Notes under the pieces: model-generated
The model's input: only the letters and a program-made list of their open reading frames with translations
Told to the model about the DNA's origin: nothing
Databases searched by the model: none
Part shown: positions 22,229-57,311 of the stretch, one piece after another
Position numbering within the stretch: the stretch's first letter is position 1
How the letters are laid out: every line of letters starts with the position of its first letter
Translations under genes and position numbers: made by a program
Source: Minisyncoccota bacterium
GTDB taxonomy: Bacteria > Patescibacteriota > Minisyncoccia > Phycocordibacterales > GWA1-40-21
Assembly: GCA_041663045.1 (NCBI GenBank)
Contig: JBAZRH010000002.1
Coordinates: forward strand, 193,946 to 257,945
Direction: 5' to 3'
Length of the DNA: 64,000 bases

Positions 22229-22231
22229 TTG

Positions 22232-22297
22232 TCGGGGCGCAGGGATTTGAACCCTGACTATCCGCCTCAGGCGGAGATATTACCTATAATCACACCG
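22232..22297 (-). pseudogene. degenerate tRNA-like copy; its 3' 30 nt are identical to the tRNA-Pro 3' part
   Basis: 66 nt. T-arm and acceptor 3' strand (TAGTCAGGGTTCAAATCCCTGCGCCCCGA) are identical to tRNA-Pro. The 5' acceptor strand CGGTGTG still pairs, but the anticodon arm is a 6-bp stem with a 3-nt loop (TCCGCC-TGA-GGCGGA). Confidence 0.55.
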
Positions 22298-22318
22298 ATA
22301 CCTTTTCTATCTTTATGG

Positions 22319-22389
22319 TCGGGGCGCAGGGATTTGAACCCTGACTACATGCTCCCAAAGCATGGATGCTACCGTTACACCACGCCCCG
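22319..22389 (-). tRNA. tRNA-Pro (anticodon UGG)
   Basis: Acceptor CGGGGCG/CGCCCCG, D-stem GTGT/GCAT, anticodon stem CATGC/GCATG with loop TTTGGGA, T-arm CAGGGTTCAAATCCCTG. Confidence 0.85.
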
Positions 22390-22592
22390 ATATTAAAAGA
22401 TATTAGCATAAAAGTTGTAACGAAGCGAGGGATAAAAATTTTTGTTAGGGGTGGCGAGCCTGCCCCTTTTGAAATGCCTTGGGAGCGCGACGGCGCGAGC
22501 ACGAGGAATTTTTTAGCAAGAAAATATCCGTGCATTTCAAAAGGGGCAGGTCGACAGGACCCCGTGAAAATTTTTATCCAGACAAGCCTCTC

Positions 22593-24131: not shown

Positions 24132-24523
24132 TAGATGAATTTTAGCAGATATTTTGATAAAAAGAAAAGCGCACTTCCCGGAGGTCATGCGCGATTGGAG
24201 AATGAAACACATCAGAGGCACTTCAGTGTGTTAGGAAGTGAAGGATTGCAATCCCCACAATAAACAGAAACACAATCGAAAATGCTTTGACGTTGTCTCG
24301 GTTGGTCAGGAAGAGATATATTCTCGACTTAAAGAACTCTTCTTCTGCGTGATGCTGTTCGTTCTGTACGTGCGTAAACGGAGGTGTCGGAGGCATTTTG
24401 TCCAGTCCTTTCTTAATGTGCTTTTTTCACAGTGTGATTACTGTAAAAATCATCAACTTTGATAACTAATTAATAATATCAGCCTTTAGACAATATGTCA
24501 AACTAACTCATATTTTTATTTTG

Positions 24524-24595
24524 TGCGCTCGGCAGGACTCGAACCCGCAACAACAGTTCCGAAGACTGTTGTGATATCCATTTCACCACGAGCGC
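24524..24595 (-). tRNA. tRNA-Arg (anticodon UCG)
   Basis: Acceptor GCGCTCG/CGAGCGC, D-stem GTGA/TCAC, anticodon stem ACAGT/ACTGT with loop CTTCGGA, T-arm GCGGGTTCGAGTCCTGC. Confidence 0.85.
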
Positions 24596-24756
24596 AATAT
24601 TAAACTCCCCCATTAGGATTCGGTCACGACTTTTGCTCGGCCGTCGCCATCGCAAAGTCTCGACCCCGACTCGCTTCCAATCCTGCTGGCTTAGGGCCCG
24701 CTCCGTCCTTTAAATCTTTCGCAAGTAAAGACTTTTACTTGCTTTCTAAGATTTAA
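24596..24756 (-). repeat. GC-rich tRNA-associated structured element (family member)
   Basis: In tRNA orientation it contains GGAAGCGAGTCGGGGTCGAGAC, a stem-loop CTTTTGC-GATGGCGACGGCCGAG-CAAAAG, and ends GTGACCGAATCCTAATGGGGGAG; G+C far above flanks. Confidence 0.6.
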
Positions 24757-24809
24757 ACCCACAACAACAGTTCCGAAGACTGTTGTGATATCCATTTCAC
24801 CATGGGAGC
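24757..24809 (-). pseudogene. partial tRNA copy: D-arm and anticodon arm identical to tRNA-Arg(UCG), with a different 5' acceptor strand and no T-arm
   Basis: 41 nt identical to the tRNA-Arg body; acceptor 5' strand GCTCCCA. The element's terminal AATGGGGGAG could pair with it. Confidence 0.55.
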
Positions 24810-24896
24810 ATTTCATCATAATACGCTAAATTGGCTAAAAATCAAAAAACAATTTTGTTTTTTTATAAAATTGTGTATAATACAAAAAGTAAATTT

Positions 24897-24967
24897 GCGG
24901 GCGTAGTTTAATGGTAGAACTAGTCCTTGCCAAGGATTGGGTTCGGGTCCGATTCCCGACGCCCGCA
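24897..24967 (+). tRNA. tRNA-Gly (anticodon GCC)
   Basis: Acceptor GCGGGCG/CGCCCGC, anticodon stem AGTCC/GGATT with loop TTGCCAA, T-arm TCGGGTCCGATTCCCGA; TATAAT at 24876-24881 upstream. Confidence 0.85.
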
Positions 24968-25017
24968 CACATAGCAAAAAAGCGCGTAACTGCGCTTTTT
25001 TGCTATGTGTGCGGGCG
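24960..25017 (+). terminator. 26-bp perfect inverted repeat incorporating the tRNA-Gly acceptor 3' strand
   Basis: CGCCCGCACACATAGCAAAAAAGCGC-GTAACT-GCGCTTTTTTGCTATGTGTGCGGGCG. Confidence 0.6.
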
Positions 25018-27863: not shown

Positions 27864-27895
27864 GGCGAAACTCTTGGGGAAAGACTTCAAATTTC

Positions 27896-27990
27896 CCCTT
27901 CTTATCAAACTCATCACTAAAACAAAAAGTGGTAAGTTTGTAGGAAGATATAGGGTCTTCTTAAACAGGTTCTTTGAGAAAGGGAAAAAC
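27896..27990 (+). promoter_or_regulatory. conserved structured 5' leader, copy 1 of 3 (Shine-Dalgarno-sequestering hairpin)
   Basis: ~95 nt aligned with the copies at 28221..28316 and 36451..36548: CTCATCAC/GTGGTAAG stem, GGAAG/CTTC stem, and TTCTTT/AAAGGG covering the Shine-Dalgarno sequence; preceded by a terminator-like hairpin at 27876..27898. Confidence 0.5.
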
Positions 27991-28170
27991 ATGAATATGT
28001 ATTTTGTTTTACCTGGTTTGGTTACCTTCATTCCCGGGCTTCTCATTTCTGTGGGCGCTTTGGGCGATCCTTCGAATAAGAAAATAGGTTTGGTCGGAAT
28101 TGTTCTAGTTCTGGTTGGGGTATCACTTGCCTCAATTGGCTCTGCATCATCTACAATGATATTAAAGTAG
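27991..28170 (+). CDS. small membrane protein (two TM helices)
   Basis: The internal ATG of track ORF 27811..28170 sits right after leader copy 1: MNMYFVLPGLVTFIPGLLISVGALGD... Confidence 0.4.
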   Translation: MNMYFVLPGLVTFIPGLLISVGALGDPSNKKIGLVGIVLVLVGVSLASIGSASSTMILK

Positions 28171-28220
28171 TTGACTGCAGTACTTCGGGCAACCGCTTCG
28201 CCCCACAAGCGAAACGGTTG

Positions 28221-28316
28221 CCCTTCTTATCAAATTCATCACTAACAAAAATGTGGTGAGTTTGTAGGAAGGCAAAACGCTTTTCTAAACGAGTTCTTTG
28301 AGAAAAGGAGAAAGTT
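28221..28316 (+). promoter_or_regulatory. conserved structured 5' leader, copy 2 of 3
   Basis: CCCTTCTTATCAAATTCATCACTAACAAAAATGTGGTGAGTTTGTAGGAAGG...TTCTTTGAGAAAAGGAGAAAGTT-ATG; preceded by a hairpin at 28187..28223. Confidence 0.5.
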
Positions 28317-32335: not shown

Positions 32336-33304
32336 TTATGATTTATTATGGAATTTTTTGTGAACATCCCGCAAGTGTTTATCCGTAACATGTGTGTAAA
32401 TTTGCGTCGTCGCGATATTTGAGTGGCCGAGCATAGCCTGGACAGAGCGAAGGTCGGCACCGTTTGAAAGCAAGTCCGTGGCAAAGCAATGGCGTATGAC
32501 ATGAGGCGTGACTTTCTTTGTTATTCCAGCTATTGTGGCGTATCTTTTTACAATTCTTTCAATTGTCCTACTAGTAAGACCACCATCCGGATCAGCTGCT
32601 GGTTTGCCTTTTATCTTTTCTTCAGCGACTTTTACAAATAAAGCATCAGACATGTCCTTGCGTAGAGCGAGATATTCTTTAATAGCGGATTTGGCTCCGT
32701 CTGATAAGAATACTACGCGTACTTTACCTCCTTTTCCGCGAATAGAAAATTCGTCCATCTTTATATCCAGATCATTTTTTAGTGAGCACAATTCAGAAAC
32801 ACGAAGGCCGGTGGAAAATAATAATTCTAAAATCGCATGTCCCCTTGCTTTTTTCTCCGGATTTTCTTCCTTATCTGGTGCGGTGAGTAAACGTTTTAAT
32901 TCAGTTTGAGAGATTACGTCTATTGATCTTTCGCCGACTTTAGCCAACTCAATATTATCTGCTGACAAGGAAGTGATACCGCGTCTAGTTAGGAATCTTA
33001 AGAATATGCGCAAAGCAATCAGATAATAATTCTGCGTTTTCTTGGTCATATTATCACTGACAAAAGTCTGATTGGAATTTCTTAGTGTCCCTCGAGTTTT
33101 TGCTCCAGGTCGGCGATTCAACCAAATACGAAATTCACGCACTTTTTCATTAGTAATATCTTTCGGATTTGTAACCTTACTTTGTTTGAAGAAGAGCGTT
33201 AGGTAACGATCATAGTTTTTTATAGTCTTCAACGCCCGTCCTCTTTCGATCTCAATATATTCAAGGAATTGAGTTTTTAGTTCTTGTAAATTCATGTCGC
33301 ACAA
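32336..33304 (-). CDS. tyrosine site-specific recombinase, XerC/XerD-like
   Basis: N-terminal SAM-like domain; catalytic-region R..HxxR..Y signatures RHCFATDLL, LGHSNIATTQIYTHV. Confidence 0.8.
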   Translation of the reverse strand: MCDMNLQELKTQFLEYIEIERGRALKTIKNYDRYLTLFFKQSKVTNPKDITNEKVREFRIWLNRRPGAKTRGTLRNSNQTFVSDNMTKKTQNYYLIALRIFLRFLTRRGITSLSADNIELAKVGERSIDVISQTELKRLLTAPDKEENPEKKARGHAILELLFSTGLRVSELCSLKNDLDIKMDEFSIRGKGGKVRVVFLSDGAKSAIKEYLALRKDMSDALFVKVAEEKIKGKPAADPDGGLTSRTIERIVKRYATIAGITKKVTPHVIRHCFATDLLSNGADLRSVQAMLGHSNIATTQIYTHVTDKHLRDVHKKFHNKS

Positions 33305-35367: not shown

Positions 35368-35464
35368 CCCCAGTGAAGTATCCGCCTATGGCGGAGAAAT
35401 CTTAAAAGATTTCACTTCACGGGGTGATGATTTTTATATTCACTTCGCTCATTAAAAATCAATC
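35368..35464 (+). promoter_or_regulatory. duplicated structured upstream module (copy 1), abutting the NYN gene start
   Basis: CCCCAGTGAAG...CTTCACGGGG stem, then TGATGATTTTTATATTCACTTCGCTCATTAAAAATCAATC-ATG; the 3' 47 nt are identical to 43829..43875 apart from two a/g swaps. Confidence 0.5.
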
Positions 35465-35989
35465 ATGTCAGTAATAAAACACAAAAATCAGAGAGTTGGG
35501 ATTTTTATAGATACACAAAATTTATATCATTCAGCTAAGAATCTGTATGGAGCCAAGGTCAACTTCGGCCAAGTCGTCAAAGACGCATTGGATGGAAGAG
35601 TTTTGATCAGAGCGACAGCATATGTCATCACCACAGAATCTGGAGACGAGAAAAGCTTTTTCGAAGCTCTTGGTAAGGTTGGTATCACGACAAAGACAAA
35701 AAATCTACAGATTTTCCCCGGTGGAGCCAAGAAAGCAGACTGGGATGTCGGTATGGCGATAGATGCTATATCACTTTCAGCAAAAGTGGATGCAGTGGTC
35801 TTGATCACAGGCGACGGAGACTTTATTCCGCTTGTAGAATATTTGAAAATCAAACAAGGATGCCAAGTGGAAGTAGTTTCCTTTGGTAAATCAACATCAG
35901 CCAAGCTCATAGAAGCCGTAGATGGCTTTATGGATTTGGATGTAAATCCGAGAAAATATTTGCTAGGGACGGGAGGGGGGAAGAGGTAG
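35465..35989 (+). CDS. NYN-domain (LabA-like, PIN-fold) protein
   Basis: RVGIFIDTQNLY...VVLITGDGDF. Confidence 0.75.
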   Translation: MSVIKHKNQRVGIFIDTQNLYHSAKNLYGAKVNFGQVVKDALDGRVLIRATAYVITTESGDEKSFFEALGKVGITTKTKNLQIFPGGAKKADWDVGMAIDAISLSAKVDAVVLITGDGDFIPLVEYLKIKQGCQVEVVSFGKSTSAKLIEAVDGFMDLDVNPRKYLLGTGGGKR

Positions 35990-36450: not shown

Positions 36451-36548
36451 TTTTTCTCCTTTTGTTAAAGAACATTTAGAAAAGTCCTATACTTTCCTAC
36501 AAACTCACCACTTTTTTGTTTTAGTGATGAGTTTGATGAGAAGGGGAA
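36451..36548 (-). promoter_or_regulatory. conserved structured 5' leader, copy 3 of 3 (minus strand)
   Basis: Reverse complement CCCCTTCTCATCAAACTCATCACTAAAACAAAAAAGTGGTGAGTTTGTAGGAAAG...TTCTTTAACAAAAGGAGAAAAA-ATG; preceded by a hairpin at 36543..36563. Confidence 0.5.
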
Positions 36549-36585
36549 CCACAGGCGTTCCCCGAAGTGAAACTCGGCTGATGTG

Positions 36586-37143
36586 TTATCCACGGAAGTA
36601 GTGCCTTTCAAGCTCCTTCCCATACTTCCATACTTTGCATAGAACATCCAAAGCGCATTTAAACTCTAATCCAGATATCGTCTCGGTGTCAACCTTATGA
36701 CTGGCCCATCCTGCAATTCTGCTCAACTTTTTGCCTTCTCCTATTTTAATCTCCATGATCTGCGCCCATCTGGAGGCAAAGCGAAGCATTCCCATCATCT
36801 CTCTTTTATTTGTTTCGACGATTTCTGCCCAAAGATTCTTGTTACGAACTTTGAATGGTACAATGCCTTGTGCAATGGCTTTCCTCTTGAGCCTTAAGTA
36901 TTTTCTGTCCTCAGCTTTTTCCTTGAGGATTTCTGCTCTCCCTTCCGGAGATCTTCCCCATTCTTTTTCATAGTTTCTCACTATGGATTTAACACTACTA
37001 CCTTTTGGGTGAGCAGTAACAATGATTCCATTGAACCTTATACAGACAGAGTTATTGAGCTTTTTTGCCCTCCCAATCATCTTTCTTGCTAGAGAATATA
37101 GATTGTCTCCATAATCGCAGAAACCCCTCTTGAGATGTCTCAT
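36586..37143 (-). CDS. hypothetical protein
   Basis: 185 aa; translationally coupled (ATGA overlap) to the upstream small Cys-rich ORF. Confidence 0.45.
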   Translation of the reverse strand: MRHLKRGFCDYGDNLYSLARKMIGRAKKLNNSVCIRFNGIIVTAHPKGSSVKSIVRNYEKEWGRSPEGRAEILKEKAEDRKYLRLKRKAIAQGIVPFKVRNKNLWAEIVETNKREMMGMLRFASRWAQIMEIKIGEGKKLSRIAGWASHKVDTETISGLEFKCALDVLCKVWKYGKELERHYFRG

Positions 37144-41779: not shown

Positions 41780-41874
41780 AATACCGCCCTTTTTGGAACA
41801 CGCATAATTTTCTGCTGAAAATTTGCTCCCTCTCATGCCGTCGCATTCCGAGAGTTTCCAAAAAGGGCGGTATT
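41780..41874. repeat. 19-bp perfect inverted repeat with 57-nt spacer downstream of pnp
   Basis: AATACCGCCCTTTTTGGAA ... TTCCAAAAAGGGCGGTATT, followed by a second terminator hairpin at 41891..41925 and TATAAT at 41931-41936. Confidence 0.6.
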
Positions 41875-43795: not shown

Positions 43796-43875
43796 CCCCA
43801 GTGAAATATGCCATCTACGTCGGCATTTCACGGGGTGATGATTTTTATATTCGCTTCACTCATTAAAAATCAATC
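43796..43875 (+). promoter_or_regulatory. duplicated structured upstream module (copy 2), abutting the comM/yifB start
   Basis: CCCCA-GTGAAAT-AT-GCC...GGC-ATTTCAC-GGGG hairpin then TGATGATTTTTATATTCGCTTCACTCATTAAAAATCAATC-ATG. Confidence 0.5.
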
Positions 43876-45477
43876 ATGTCCTTTGCAAAAACTTTTAGCG
43901 CACAGACCGTCGGTTTGGGTGCAGAAATTATTGATGTAGAAGTTGATTTATCAAAAGGTTTACACTCCTTCTCTATTGTGGGCCTCGGAGATAAAGCAGT
44001 AGAAGAGTCACGTGATAGAGTTTCGGCTTCTATTAAAAATTGCGGTTACAAATCTCCTAAAAATAAGAATCAGAAAGTTGTTGTTTCACTAGCTCCAGCA
44101 GATGTTCGCAAAGAAGGTCCGGCTTTTGACGTAGCCATATCACTTGCATACCTTTTGGCGGATGGGGAGATCAAATTTGATTCAAAGAAGAAACTTTTTC
44201 TTGGCGAGCTTTCTCTTGATGGCAAACTTAGGAAAATAAATGGCGTTTTGCCGATTGTGGCAGAGGCAAAAAGGCGAGGTTTTGAGGAGGTCTTTTTGCC
44301 AAAAGAGAATACAAAAGAAGCAGCGCTAGTCTCTGATATAAATATTTATGGTGCAGAAAATCTGGGGCAGATAATCGGCCACTTGGATGAAGGCGATGCT
44401 CCAAGAAAAGGGAAGTCAAGAGAAATTGACCCAGAGACTTTTGAAGCAGAAGATGAATTTATTTCGCAGAAAATAAATCCAGAACCGCAGACAGAGATTC
44501 TCGTAGAAGAAGACGAAGCTATAATAGATTTTAGTGAAATCAAAGGTCAGGAAACTGCCAAAAGAGGGCTTGAAATAGCCGCCGCTGGCGGACACAATAT
44601 CGCTATGTATGGGCCACCGGGGACAGGCAAGACAATGCTTGCAAAAGCATTTAGTCATATTCTTCCACCACTTTCTTTCGATGAAATACTGGAGATAACA
44701 GCCATACATTCTGTGTCTGGAAATCTGAAAAAAGATATTATTTCGAAACCTCCCGTCCGCGCACCACATCATACCTCTTCTTATGTTTCACTTGTCGGTG
44801 GAGGCACAGTGCCAAAGCCTGGGGAGGTGACACTTGCTCATGGCGGAGTGCTTTTCTTGGATGAATTTCCAGAATTTGATAGGAAAGTTATTGAAGCACT
44901 CCGTGAACCACTTGAAGAAGGGGAGATCACTATCTCTCGTGCCCGAGGTTCACATGCTTTCCCTGCCAATTTTATTCTCATCGCCGCCATGAATCCGTGC
45001 CCTTGTGGAAACTTTGGCTCAAAGACAAAAGAGTGTATTTGTAAGCCGACAGATTTGCTTCGATATCAGAGGAAAATCTCTGGGCCGATAGTGGACAGAA
45101 TAGATATGTGGGTGGAAGTCTCGCAGATAAATTATGAAAAGCTCGGTGAGAAAGAAAATATTAAAAAAGAGACGGCCGATATAAAAAAGAGGGTGACAAA
45201 AGCGAGAGAAATCCAAAAAGAGAGATTTACTGCTGGAAAGAGAAAAATTCGCACAAATAGCGAAATGGAAGCCAAAGATATTTTGAAACTTGCCGACTTG
45301 GAAGACAAAGCTAAAGGTATTTTAATTTCTTCCGCAAGAAAGCTAGATCTTTCTGCTCGTGCATATCACAGGGTTATAAAACTCGCGAGAACCATTGCTG
45401 ATCTTGAAGGGAGTGAAAGTATAAAGACAAATCATATCTTGGAGGCGTTGCAGTATAGGCCGAAGAGGAATCAATAA
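43876..45477 (+). CDS. comM: Mg-chelatase-like AAA+ ATPase YifB/ComM
   Basis: N-terminal Lon-like domain, Walker A GPPGTGKTML, C-terminal Mg-chelatase region. Confidence 0.85.
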   Translation: MSFAKTFSAQTVGLGAEIIDVEVDLSKGLHSFSIVGLGDKAVEESRDRVSASIKNCGYKSPKNKNQKVVVSLAPADVRKEGPAFDVAISLAYLLADGEIKFDSKKKLFLGELSLDGKLRKINGVLPIVAEAKRRGFEEVFLPKENTKEAALVSDINIYGAENLGQIIGHLDEGDAPRKGKSREIDPETFEAEDEFISQKINPEPQTEILVEEDEAIIDFSEIKGQETAKRGLEIAAAGGHNIAMYGPPGTGKTMLAKAFSHILPPLSFDEILEITAIHSVSGNLKKDIISKPPVRAPHHTSSYVSLVGGGTVPKPGEVTLAHGGVLFLDEFPEFDRKVIEALREPLEEGEITISRARGSHAFPANFILIAAMNPCPCGNFGSKTKECICKPTDLLRYQRKISGPIVDRIDMWVEVSQINYEKLGEKENIKKETADIKKRVTKAREIQKERFTAGKRKIRTNSEMEAKDILKLADLEDKAKGILISSARKLDLSARAYHRVIKLARTIADLEGSESIKTNHILEALQYRPKRNQ

Positions 45478-50584: not shown

Positions 50585-50777
50585 ATAAATATCGGTATTT
50601 TTTGTTAACTATGCGAAAGCTTGCCGAGATTCGAACGGCGGAGCACACGGAGCGAAGCGGAGTCTGTCGCGAGCACGCGACAGGCACGAGCCGGTGCCCA
50701 ACCCGAATCCGAGCGACGGCGAGGATGAGAGGTGCGGGCGAATCTCACCTCTTCCGCATTAACAAAAAATGCCGATA
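50585..50777 (+). repeat. GC-rich tRNA-trailing element ending in an exact 38-nt copy of the tRNA-Ser 3' end plus terminator
   Basis: Direct repeat GAATCTCACCTCTTCCGCATTAACAAAAAATGCCGATA at 50547..50584 and 50740..50777. Interior contains antisense GAGATTCGAAC, hairpins CTGTCGCG-AGCA-CGCGACAG and GGCAC-GAGCCG-GTGCC, and ATCC-GAGCGACGGCGAG-GGAT. Confidence 0.65.
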
Positions 50778-51083: not shown

Positions 51084-51836
51084 ATGAAATATTTAGGAAT
51101 TGATTATGGAGAGAAAAGGGTAGGGATAGCCATATCTGACAATGATGGAAAGGTAGCCTTTCCCAAGATTGTCTTTGAGAATAACACTGACCTTTTTAAA
51201 AGAATATCTGAATTTTGTATAGAAAACAAAGTGGAGGCTATCGTCGTGGGAGAATCGAAAAATTACAAAGGTGAAGAAAACAAAATAAATCCCAAGATAA
51301 TTTCTTTCAAGAGAGAACTATCTGGTCTTATTAAACTACCAATTTCACTTGAACCAGAATTTATGTCTTCGATGCAGGTAGAGAAAACTTTTGGTAAGAC
51401 AGAAATGCTCGATGCTTCTGCCGCTTCGATAATTTTGCAGACATTCTTAGATAAAGAAAAAAATAGACAGGAGAAAAAAAAGCAAGCCGAGGCGACAATT
51501 GCCGACAAAAAAATAACTTATGACGATTTCAAAAAAGTCGAGATGAAAATAGGGAAAATACTTTCTGTCGAGCCGGTTGCCGGTTCTGATAAGCTTTTGA
51601 AACTCTCTGTCGATTTCGCAGAAGGCACACCAAGGCAGATTCTTTCTGGGATCGCCAAGTATTTTTCTGATTATCAGACACTTGTCGGAAAGAAAGTCGC
51701 TTTCGTCACCAACCTTGAGTCTAGGGAAATGATGGGACTTCAGAGTAACGGTATGATTCTTGCTGCACATACTGGTGATAGTCTCGCTATCATGGAAGTT
51801 CCGGATTTTATAAAAGAGGGGACAGAACTAAGTTAA
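51084..51836 (+). CDS. ruvX: fusion of RuvX/YqgF-like pre-16S rRNA nuclease with a C-terminal tRNA-binding (Myf/Trbp111/CsaA-like) domain
   Basis: N-terminal MKYLGIDYGEKRVGIAISD; C-terminal KVEMKIGKILSVEPVAGSDKLLKLSVDFAEG...ILSGIAK...GMILAA. Confidence 0.7.
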   Translation: MKYLGIDYGEKRVGIAISDNDGKVAFPKIVFENNTDLFKRISEFCIENKVEAIVVGESKNYKGEENKINPKIISFKRELSGLIKLPISLEPEFMSSMQVEKTFGKTEMLDASAASIILQTFLDKEKNRQEKKKQAEATIADKKITYDDFKKVEMKIGKILSVEPVAGSDKLLKLSVDFAEGTPRQILSGIAKYFSDYQTLVGKKVAFVTNLESREMMGLQSNGMILAAHTGDSLAIMEVPDFIKEGTELS

Positions 51837-55180: not shown

Positions 55181-55480
55181 CAAAATGAAAAAGGTGGAAA
55201 TCAATCCGCCTTTTTCATTTTGTGTCGCCAAGCAAGCAAACTGCTTTGCTTGCGGGTAGGAATCGAACAGCGGAACTATGTTTTTTCAGCAGAAAAAACT
55301 AGTGAGCTGGTGCCCAGACTTTTTCGAGCGACGGCGAGAAAAAAGTCGAGGGAGATAAGCGAAGTGGTCCTGCTGGAATCGAAGCCCCATTGAGCGTTTT
55401 TTGTAATTTCTGAATGAACAAAAAATCCAATGGGGGGGGTACTGACCCTGTAAGGGTCGATATCCTGCTGGCGGCTTTTT
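55181..55480 (+). repeat. composite GC-rich tRNA-trailing element(s) with two degenerate copies of the tRNA-Arg 3' end
   Basis: Terminator at 55180..55224; antisense GTAGGAATCGAAC (55256..55268); hairpin GACTTTTTC-GAGCGACGGCGAG-AAAAAAGTC (55317..55347); 3'-end-like GGAATCGAAGCCCC and GGGTCGATATCCTGCTGGCGGC-TTTTT (55454..55480). Confidence 0.6.
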
Positions 55481-55589: not shown

Positions 55590-55742
55590 CAGGCAAAAAG
55601 AGGGCAAATGCGAAAACTTGAAGTATTTGTTCTCTTTTTGGCTAATGATACAGGATTCGAAAGACGGAACACGACGGTGTGAGTCGGGGTCGCAGGATTT
55701 TCTAGCAGGAAAATACCTGTGACCGAGTCCTGTATCGCCCAC
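55590..55742 (+). repeat. GC-rich tRNA-trailing element ending in a 19-nt exact copy of the tRNA-Val 3' end
   Basis: Antisense GATACAGGATTCG (55647..55659); GGTGTGAGTCGGGGTCGCAGG; junction CTGTGACCGAGTCCTGTATCGCCCAC (55717..55742) then TTTTTT-ATG of rluA. Confidence 0.65.
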
Positions 55743-57162: not shown

Positions 57163-57311
57163 CAAAATAAGCAAATTTATTTGCTTATGTAATTGGGGAC
57201 GAGAAAACCGGAGCGATGCCGAGCCAGCAGGCGAGGCCGTGAGGCGGGGTCGAGAGTTTTTGTGAGCGACGGCGAACAAAAAACTTGTGACCGAGTCCTC
57301 TCCCGTGCACA
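57163..57311 (+). repeat. GC-rich tRNA-trailing element ending in a 20-nt exact copy of the tRNA-Leu 3' end
   Basis: Terminator-like hairpin at 57165..57188; CCGTGAGGCGGGGTCGAGAG; hairpin AGTTTTTGT-GAGCGACGGCGA-ACAAAAACT (57255..57284); junction TTGTGACCGAGTCCTCTCCCGTGCACA then ATT-ATG of the pduO-type gene. Confidence 0.65.

Follow-up and report, generated by a model that had tools for sequence, protein, structure and literature searches.

REP/BIME sequences, the Rickettsia palindromic elements, the Correia elements of Neisseria, the pneumococcal BOX elements and the GC clusters of yeast mitochondria are structured, non-autonomous repeats. Among integrative elements that target tRNA genes, the att sites of the tyrosine integrases lie in the T-loop, and the classical signature of integration at these genes is a direct repeat that starts in the T-loop or variable region and continues through the 3' end of the tRNA. 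The t-elements of plant mitochondria serve as processing or stability signals that are recognised by RNase P or RNase Z. Structured RNAs that interrupt tRNA genes are also described in the phylum studied here: the group I introns of Patescibacteria tRNA genes sit in the anticodon loop (e.g. 35/36), match RF00028, self-splice and mostly lack homing endonuclease genes (PMC13011429).

The GC-rich element described here is a member of a large, uncatalogued superfamily of RNA-structured repeats tied to tRNA T-arms in Paceibacteria (CPR), and a search of the full-text literature found no description of tRNA-linked structured or mobile elements in CPR. Like REP/BIME, Correia and BOX-type repeats, the family members are short, multi-copy, GC-rich or strongly folding, intergenic, modular (arms swap and duplicate), non-coding and patchily distributed, and they often stand at the 3' termini of transcription units in genomes that are AT-rich and reduced. 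In contrast to such repeats, they do not fold as a simple palindrome but as a three-way junction that covaries and whose junction nucleotides are conserved. Their target is a hairpin loop, overwhelmingly that of a tRNA T-arm copy, and each member comes with a duplicated tRNA 3' end; they also have neither terminal inverted repeats of their own nor a known transposase.

The locus lies on the minus strand of the window (the whole 64-kb stretch of DNA analysed, which comes from a CPR bacterium of the Paceibacteria type), where a preliminary description had placed a partial tRNA, a GC-rich element and a complete tRNA-Arg(UCG) in this order. This arrangement was recovered at 24845-24524: a promoter is followed by Arg′ (a 5' fragment of tRNA-Arg(UCG)), a conserved hairpin, a 110-nt GC-rich core, the tail GTGACCGAATCCTAATGGGGGAG, 9 nt and the intact tRNA-Arg(UCG), which is the adjoining complete paralog of the preliminary description. 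The features are as follows.

24818 to 24845, minus strand: sigma-70-like promoter (TTGATT-16 nt-TATTAT), directly 5' of Arg′, 9/12 match
24803 to 24809, minus strand: Arg′ acceptor 5' strand GCTCCCA, 6/7 pairing with the tail at 24612-24606
24762 to 24802, minus strand: 41 nt spanning D-arm, UCG anticodon arm and variable loop, with no difference from the intact tRNA-Arg
24746 to 24762, minus strand: T-stem 5' strand GTGGG and decayed T-loop/T-stem remnant TTTAAAT-CTTAG, attached to Arg′
24721 to 24742, minus strand: 9-bp scaffold hairpin GCAAGTAAA-AGTC-TTTACTTGC, a module conserved in other members
24611 to 24720, minus strand: family core, three-way junction, covariance-model match of 86.9 bits
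24605 to 24627, minus strand: tail GTGACCGAATCCTAATGGGGGAG, made up of the P2 end, CGAAT, CCTAA, TGGGGGA and G
24596 to 24604, minus strand: 9-nt spacer TTTAATATT between tail and intact tRNA, without a promoter
24524 to 24595, minus strand: intact tRNA-Arg(UCG), acceptor GCGCTCG/CGAGCGC, 64.4 bits against the Rfam tRNA model

Within the tail, CGAAT corresponds to the 3' part of the T-loop, CCTAA to the T-stem 3' strand and TGGGGGA to the acceptor 3' strand, all of them those of Arg′; an orphan tail identical to it, GTGACCGAATCCTAA, is found at the Arg locus of a related genome (L040). The CCA is not encoded in the intact tRNA-Arg(UCG) gene. The promoter at 24818 to 24845 is the sole promoter-like site upstream of the two tRNA-Arg copies; none was found between the tail and the intact tRNA-Arg, and the strong promoter of the CCA-enzyme gene is located downstream of the latter. 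With no such site in front of it alone, the intact tRNA-Arg is probably transcribed through Arg′ and the element, and all three appear to belong to the same transcript.

Comparison of the two tRNA copies confirmed an identical run of exactly 41 nt (window 24802-24762; linear tRNA positions 8-48) within an overall agreement of 50/55, as well as different acceptor strands, GCTCCCA in the fragment and GCGCTCG in the intact gene. ARAGORN called 24810-24739 a tRNA only with a mispaired acceptor, and Arg′ scored 26.5 bits against the Rfam tRNA model RF00005, under its 29-bit gathering threshold. As had been proposed, the tail prefers the acceptor strand of the fragment, forming 6/7 pairs with GCTCCCA (one G.U and one G1.A72 mismatch; duplex -11.2 kcal/mol) as against -6.4 kcal/mol with the acceptor strand of the intact tRNA. 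Moreover, the 7:66 pair is G-C in the closest relative (L001) and A-T in Arg′ plus tail. This compensatory change and the 6/7 pairing indicate that the Arg′ acceptor and the tail, which lies some 150 nt further downstream, are the halves of one gene, original or duplicated. The claim that an element had split one tRNA-Arg-like gene therefore holds in so far as a family element lies between a tRNA-Arg-like 5' body and its matching 3' acceptor strand. However, the break had been put between the variable region and the T-arm, which is not correct: the T-stem 5' strand and a decayed T-loop/T-stem 3' remnant are retained, and the core takes the position of the T-loop. The T-arm, which had been called ruined, is indeed decayed but not absent, since GTGGG and the mutated remnant TTTAAAT-CTTAG (24762-24746) are kept.

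Positions 8-52 of Arg′ showed 0/45 differences from the L001 ortholog, as against 5/12 in the T-loop/T-stem remnant (Fisher p=1.9e-4). The remnant TTTAAATCTT (24757-24748) is perfectly complementary to the element 5' module AAGATTTAAA (-7.5 kcal/mol), and the pairing of this module with the tail, which is the usual closing helix, has -2.9 kcal/mol at the Arg′ locus. This complementarity and the weakened closing helix suggest templated correction or selection within that hairpin.

The preliminary description had suggested a comparison with orthologous loci. L001 has a single intact tRNA-Arg without an element; in another relative, L002, an Arg′ remnant is present that has decayed further, its core and 3' half being gone. 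Both loci align with the Arg′ locus in their upstream regions, and these alignments make Arg′ the positional ortholog of the single working, functional tRNA-Arg gene of the closest relative. A broken copy next to an intact copy is present at the Arg locus of L002 too, where the Arg′ remnant carries L002's own anticodon-stem variant, which points to gene conversion between tandem copies or to separate events in each lineage. A recent local duplication, raised earlier as another explanation of the 41-nt identity, is not shown by this identity, because the 45-nt body is also identical in L001 and the broken/intact pair recurs in L002.

The GC island had been assigned to a family on the basis of shared modules, and a covariance model (R1) built from 12 copies in the window and its relatives bore this out. 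R1 gave a full-model match to the core at the Arg′ locus (86.9 bits, E about 1e-26, model positions 1-111), found six more copies in the window, seven in all, and had 46 matches in 805 kb from 80 related Paceibacteria genomes. The fold consists of a closing helix P0 (family consensus GGAWTCG/CGAWTCC), a helix P1 leading with a GGA/GA internal loop to arm Pa, and a helix P2 (GGUCG/UGACC) leading to arm Pb; the GGA/GA loop is not a classical K-turn, as it has a 1-nt bulge only. In the copy at 24611 to 24720, AAGATTTAAA is the 5' strand of P0, which contains three non-standard pairs, P1 is GAC/GTC with the GGA/GA internal loop, P2 is GGTCG/TGACC, Pa is capped by a CAGCAG loop and Pb by GA-UGGC-GACG-GCC-GA. 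Each element contains a single GACG hairpin, with tandem G-A on its flanks, and a single YAGCAR loop; the two modules can exchange places between arms Pa and Pb. Compensatory changes were found at 21/30 pairs in the 12-copy seed alignment; in 47 sequences 29/30 pairs covary and 93.5% of the cells are paired (64% when shuffled, 40-46% when slid), both in an alignment that was fitted to the model and is thus biased toward the structure. A G.U pair is conserved in the family and core and tRNA are co-oriented in 37/37 cases, which suggests that the sense strand forms the structure as RNA. A related core type, the third (C), has the form ...GAAGCCCGATTGAG...CCAATYGGGGTACTG-hairpin(TGTAA)....

The linkage of this family to tRNA genes is strong. 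Among 45 strong copies, 37 lie at most 150 nt downstream of a tRNA, all 37 on the same strand (0.92 expected, p=7e-55). With any core type counted, 32/225 tRNAs are followed downstream by a sense-strand duplicate of their 3' end, as against one on the control side, and about half of these 32 copies hold a type-C core; an R1 core with a decayed tail follows 29 further tRNAs, and a member is present at no fewer than a quarter of the tRNA genes sampled. Typically, an intact tRNA is followed by a palindromic terminator (whose arms include the acceptor 3' strand and an acceptor-5' copy), a conserved 9-bp hairpin, the T-stem 5' strand, AWTCGAA, the core, CGAWT, the T-stem 3' strand, the acceptor 3' strand and, at times, a second terminator copy. 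The core always sits in the loop of a long stem; as a rule, this stem is T-arm sequence of a duplicate, partial or complete, of the neighbouring tRNA gene, and an anticodon arm is missing altogether from most scaffolds of the family. In the hairpin module, 23 nt are identical in three genomes beside three different tRNAs: AGCAAGCAAACTGCTTTGCTTGC is the same in the Arg(UCU) element of the window, in L070 and in L043, and covaries in L054. A kissing pair between the CUGC loop of this scaffold hairpin and the CAGCAG loop was considered and discarded, as it fits the Arg(UCU) copy only.

The flanks of the elements derive from the target and measure 7 to 67 nt. The start of the direct repeat is invariably the (T)CGAWT of the T-loop, and the repeat reaches 43-46 nt past the tRNA end at the tRNA-Ser of the window and the tRNA-Pro of L029; a restriction site (TT^CGAA or T^CGA) at the repeat boundary was rejected, since the right-hand junction ACCGA is no such site. 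The identity of the tail to the tRNA 3' end ranges from 19/19 down to chance level, and young copies have the full acceptor stem, hairpin and T-stem. In copies with decayed tails, the acceptor-5' copy tracks the upstream tRNA or its terminator palindrome, not the element's tail. Since this copy matches the upstream tRNA despite tail decay, the "acceptor stem" of the element is not itself maintained.

Repeat and motif searches found the same modules beside the tRNA-Ser, Arg(UCU), Val and Leu genes of the window, whose other members are the following.

57194 to 57303, plus strand: member after tRNA-Leu(GAG), tail 19/19 identical to the tRNA 3' end
55650 to 55735, plus strand: short-form member after tRNA-Val(UAC), tail 19/19 identical
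55222 to 55470, plus strand: composite member after tRNA-Arg(UCU), with acceptor-5' copy, hairpin, type-B core (55262-55356), type-C core and acceptor-3' copy
50624 to 50750, plus strand: type-B member after tRNA-Ser(UGA), flanked by a 66-68-nt direct repeat that consists of the tRNA 3' end and terminator
41790 to 41862, minus strand: minimal core, placed in the loop of a terminator-like palindrome of 18 bp and without a neighbouring tRNA
22467 to 22544, plus strand: degenerate core in the loop of a 19-bp palindrome, R1 match

Two window cores thus sit in ordinary terminator-like palindromes. In addition, the tRNA-Pro of the window has gained 87 nt, a hairpin and a perfect T-arm copy without a core, i.e., an empty scaffold.

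These comparisons replace the earlier picture of a one-off insertion, since a core in a T-arm-derived stem together with a copy of the 3' end is the general design of the family. The Arg′ locus conforms to this design in having a same-strand tRNA directly upstream of the core, albeit a broken one, and a tail copy of its 3' strands downstream. It is nevertheless atypical within the family because the interrupted copy retains the tRNA body. The family layout usually puts the intact tRNA upstream of the core, whereas here it lies downstream, and only a 12-nt decayed remnant and the tail remain of the direct repeat.

Occupancy and relatedness of the cores were then compared among the genomes. The cores showed no clustering by tRNA type (p=0.15) and weak clustering by genome (p=0.03), and the nearest relatives of a core are often found beside another tRNA in another genome; the CCA enzymes of genomes that share the family structure are only 56-65% identical. 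Occupancy is swapped between the window and L001, the latter having an element after tRNA-Gly(GCC) and none at Arg and the window the reverse; the tRNA-Pro is empty in L001 and shows the full layout with a type-C core in L002. Repeats of 67 nt flank a core in L029, and L050 has an 86-nt tandem repeat, 100% identical, that includes part of a core. The family therefore shows the multiple dispersed copies and the presence/absence polymorphism between relatives that are expected of MITE/REP-like elements; in contrast, it has no inverted repeats at its own termini and no target-site duplication of short, fixed length, and no cognate transposase was found among the ORFs scanned. Nor was any transposase, reverse transcriptase or element-borne recombinase found among the ~33 of some 63 window ORFs that were scanned against Pfam. 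The tails ranging from perfect to decayed, the patchy occupancy, the tandem repeat and the unmaintained acceptor stem point to a duplicative element, the tRNA-derived flanks of which would arise anew with every event and decay afterwards, whereas the core would be conserved.

On this basis, we favour, with a probability of roughly 0.55, the reading of the module as an RNA-structured repeat of a duplicative and probably selfish kind, which settles in redundant copies of tRNA genes and would be co-transcribed with tRNAs, its constrained structure being formed by the sense strand as RNA. It may spread between tRNA loci by recombination or insertion with a fixed left boundary between T55 and C56 of the T-loop, and the surviving copies would be only those in redundant tRNA duplicates or other dispensable hairpins; after insertion, the tRNA-derived flanks would decay and the core would be kept. 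A simple target-site-duplication model does not account for the closing helix, whose 5' strand is the complement of the T-loop and not its repeat. At the Arg locus, the promoter-proximal gene copy would have been struck. The intact tRNA-Arg would then be reached by transcripts that first cross Arg′ and the element; RNase P would release it by a cut at its 5' end, with the Arg′-element RNA left as a by-product, and the element 5' module may have co-changed with the T-loop remnant through templated palindrome correction or selection for the hairpin. What counts against selfishness is the strong structural conservation across divergent, streamlined genomes, which also fits a host function.

A broader and more tentative possibility, to which we give distinctly less credence than to a selfish repeat, is a clade-wide Paceibacteria system in which tRNA-derived scaffolds display three-way-junction modules, these being either functional RNAs produced in parallel with tRNAs (for processing, for stability or for the binding of ligands or proteins) or modules that spread by a new mechanism recognising the T-loop and copying the 3' end. 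Candidate partners of such a system are a clade-specific RuvX nuclease (51084-51836), which is fused to a tRNA-binding domain, and the Xer-type recombinase (32336-33304). The RuvX-tRNA_bind fusion was rejected as a correlate, since it is clade-wide and housekeeping-like and thus shows no copy-level correlation.

Somewhat less probable still, yet a serious alternative because of the deep conservation, is that the cores are host-functional RNAs: working modules on a tRNA-like scaffold that are expressed with tRNAs and whose flanks are under selection. They could be processing or stability signals for RNase P or RNase Z, or protein- or ligand-binding RNAs. Apart from the covarying structure, this would fit the constant position and orientation behind tRNAs, the complete acceptor stem, hairpin and T-stem of young copies, the 23-nt scaffold hairpin shared by three divergent genomes, the GACG cap and CAGCAG loop that are kept even when they swap arms, and the occupation of at least a quarter of the sampled tRNA genes. 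An acceptor-stem and T-stem mimic that flanks a non-tRNA body is also known from t-elements, mascRNA, the tRNA-like domain of tmRNA and engineered tRNA scaffolds, and processing by RNase P or RNase Z would be plausible for the family by analogy. In contrast to those cases, however, the scaffold here copies the neighbouring tRNA and decays with age, and its body replaces the T-loop, not the anticodon arm. Moreover, occupancy is patchy even among close relatives and none of the tRNA types depends on having an element; the acceptor portion of the tail is free to decay while the acceptor-5' copy follows the terminator palindrome, the closing helix is partly broken in the copy at the Arg′ locus, and some cores sit in ordinary terminator hairpins.

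It is unlikely that the tRNA 3'-end repeats are attL/attR-type scars left by integrases, with the cores as remains or miniatures of integrative elements. The resemblance to tRNA-targeting integrative elements is a real one: a direct repeat of the tRNA 3' part is seen family-wide on both sides of the insert, beginning in the T-loop or variable region and running through the tRNA 3' end and beyond, and an intact tRNA lies on one side and a displaced 3' fragment on the other. Consistent with such an origin, the downstream copy at the tRNA-Pro of the window preserves the ancestral junction with the next gene, tRNA orientation flips among relatives, and the window encodes an Xer-type tyrosine recombinase; this sole recombinase found in the window lies 8 kb away, far from any copy. 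Unlike integrative elements, however, the inserts measure merely 60-250 bp, contain no ORF, integrase or cargo, and carry a structured core and an antisense T-loop copy. An integrase would also need a tRNA-specific attachment site for each copy, yet the same core lineages occur at many tRNA types, and scars would not preserve a covarying three-way junction. Scans of viral contigs returned three chance matches, with no model match and no tRNAs, so that no family member was seen on them.

Much less probable is that Arg′ and the tail form a functional tRNA-Arg from whose T-loop the core is removed at the RNA level. In favour of this, the acceptor halves pair at 6/7 positions, one of which has changed in a compensatory way since the ortholog; the D-arm and the anticodon arm are undamaged (0/45 differences), the product expected from splicing is recognised as a tRNA by ARAGORN, and self-splicing tRNA introns exist in Patescibacteria (PMC13011429). 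Nevertheless, the acceptor and T stems of the spliced product are not fully paired (G1.A72 and G49.A65 mismatches), the mutated T-loop remnant is retained, the L002 ortholog lacks the 3' half and the core, and most family scaffolds have no anticodon arm. The core also differs from the known introns of the phylum in its position, which is that of the T-loop and not the anticodon loop, in its size of about 110 nt, and in residing mostly in scaffolds that are not tRNAs. It is far below the size of the smallest group I introns, which to our knowledge is roughly 200 nt; no group I or II Rfam model matched, and RF00028 gave no match at E<=10 over the locus.

That the GC island is SRP RNA, 6S RNA, tmRNA, RNase P RNA or another catalogued RNA has almost no probability left, since only its GC-richness and CAGCAG motif speak for it and no Rfam 15 family matched at threshold, nor any over the core even at E<=10. 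The dismissal of an SRP or 6S identity in the preliminary description was therefore sound. Searches of Rfam at gathering and permissive thresholds over the locus, the other members, the relatives and the type-C core returned only tRNAs and chance hairpin matches, and ARAGORN found no tmRNA. Checks by eye of a resemblance to hammerhead and other small self-cleaving ribozymes and of a likeness of GGAUUCGA to the tmRNA 5' region did not hold.

Overall, CPR genomes are tiny and have little room for junk, yet at least one in four of the sampled tRNA genes bears such modules. If the family is a selfish repeat, as we favour, it would represent a new repeat lifestyle, hidden in the T-loop of spare tRNA-gene copies, from which tRNA pseudogenes, duplications and local inversions arise that confuse annotation (e.g. 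the ARAGORN call of Arg′ as a tRNA). If it is functional, the engineered tRNA scaffold would have a counterpart in nature, and the family would form a new class of RNA in bacteria. The Arg′ locus offers a concrete test, because a tRNA-Arg that is apparently needed seems to be transcribed through the element. Either way, the family merits a covariance model in public databases.

Besides the cores recognised by model R1, the covariance model of this family of GC-rich three-way-junction RNA modules, the window and its relatives carry a third type of core, and one relative carries a compound element.

Window 55357-55470, plus strand: third core type; also in related loci L002 (8935-9045), L043, L076, L033, L025 and others
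L040 3164-3337, minus strand: compound element behind tRNA-Pro

The third type follows the pattern AWTCGAAGCCCGATTGAG...CCAATYGGGGTACTG-hairpin(TGTAA)-AGAWTC and occupies the same kind of tRNA-derived scaffold as the other cores; it was not detected by model R1, and no known Rfam family matched it. In the L040 element, the junction of the outer element holds a second unit of helices and arms (P1/Pa-P2/Pb) together with an extra hairpin, the arrangement being either a nested element or a tandem duplication of the core.

The tRNA-Pro of the window was compared with that of L001, its closest relative.

Window 22231-22316, minus strand: 87-nt gain relative to L001, downstream of tRNA-Pro (22316-22389)

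This gain begins with a 57-nt spacer, the end of which forms a small hairpin; the 30 nt that follow repeat the variable loop, T-arm and acceptor 3' strand of tRNA-Pro without a mismatch. The gain contains no core and resembles an "empty scaffold". In the window the 30-nt copy adjoins the start codon of the following gene, a position taken in L001 by tRNA-Pro itself.

Several features concern the tRNA-Arg(UCG) locus and the neighbouring tRNA-Gly(GCC).

L002 5838-5880: remnant of the broken, promoter-proximal tRNA-Arg copy (Arg′), with a D-loop insertion
Window 24473-24501, minus strand: near-consensus promoter TTGACA-17-TATTAT with extended TG, directly behind the intact tRNA-Arg
Window 24960-25017: perfect 26-bp palindrome with a 6-nt loop at the 3' end of tRNA-Gly(GCC)

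The insertion in the L002 remnant is a 30-nt AT-rich hairpin (CCCGAACAAATTTATTAAAATTTGAACGGG). The promoter presumably serves the gene of the CCA-adding enzyme. The first arm of the palindrome includes the acceptor 3' strand of tRNA-Gly, and its second arm thereby recreates the acceptor 5' strand. This design, which is common behind tRNAs of relatives (L012, L052, L009), may represent a terminator or the scar of a lost duplicate. Across L001-L080, the tRNA-Gly/tRNA-Arg pair sits upstream of the conserved CCA-enzyme gene, relative to which both tRNA orientations flip repeatedly, with all four combinations found; these flips suggest local inversions with breakpoints at the tRNA genes.

Two further repeats were found in the window.

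27893-28313 and 36475-36550: separate repeat family
35413-35469 and 43824-43880: 57-nt sequence, 95% identical at its two sites

The former comprises 34-66-nt direct repeats 325 nt apart and an inverted copy 8 kb away (79-97% identity), which lies just upstream of a Tad4-like-domain protein (36586-37143); the small ORFs around these repeats had no Pfam match. At its two sites the 57-nt sequence directly precedes unrelated genes, one for an RNase with an NYN domain and one for a Mg-chelatase/ComM-like ATPase, and it may be a common promoter or leader.

The window also encodes a fusion protein.

51084-51836, plus strand: fusion of a RuvX/YqgF nuclease domain with a tRNA-binding domain of the Trbp111 type

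All of its 120 best matches keep the fusion (68-100% identity), and every one whose organism is named by the source belongs to Candidatus Paceibacterota. This protein may be a tRNA-shape-specific nuclease.
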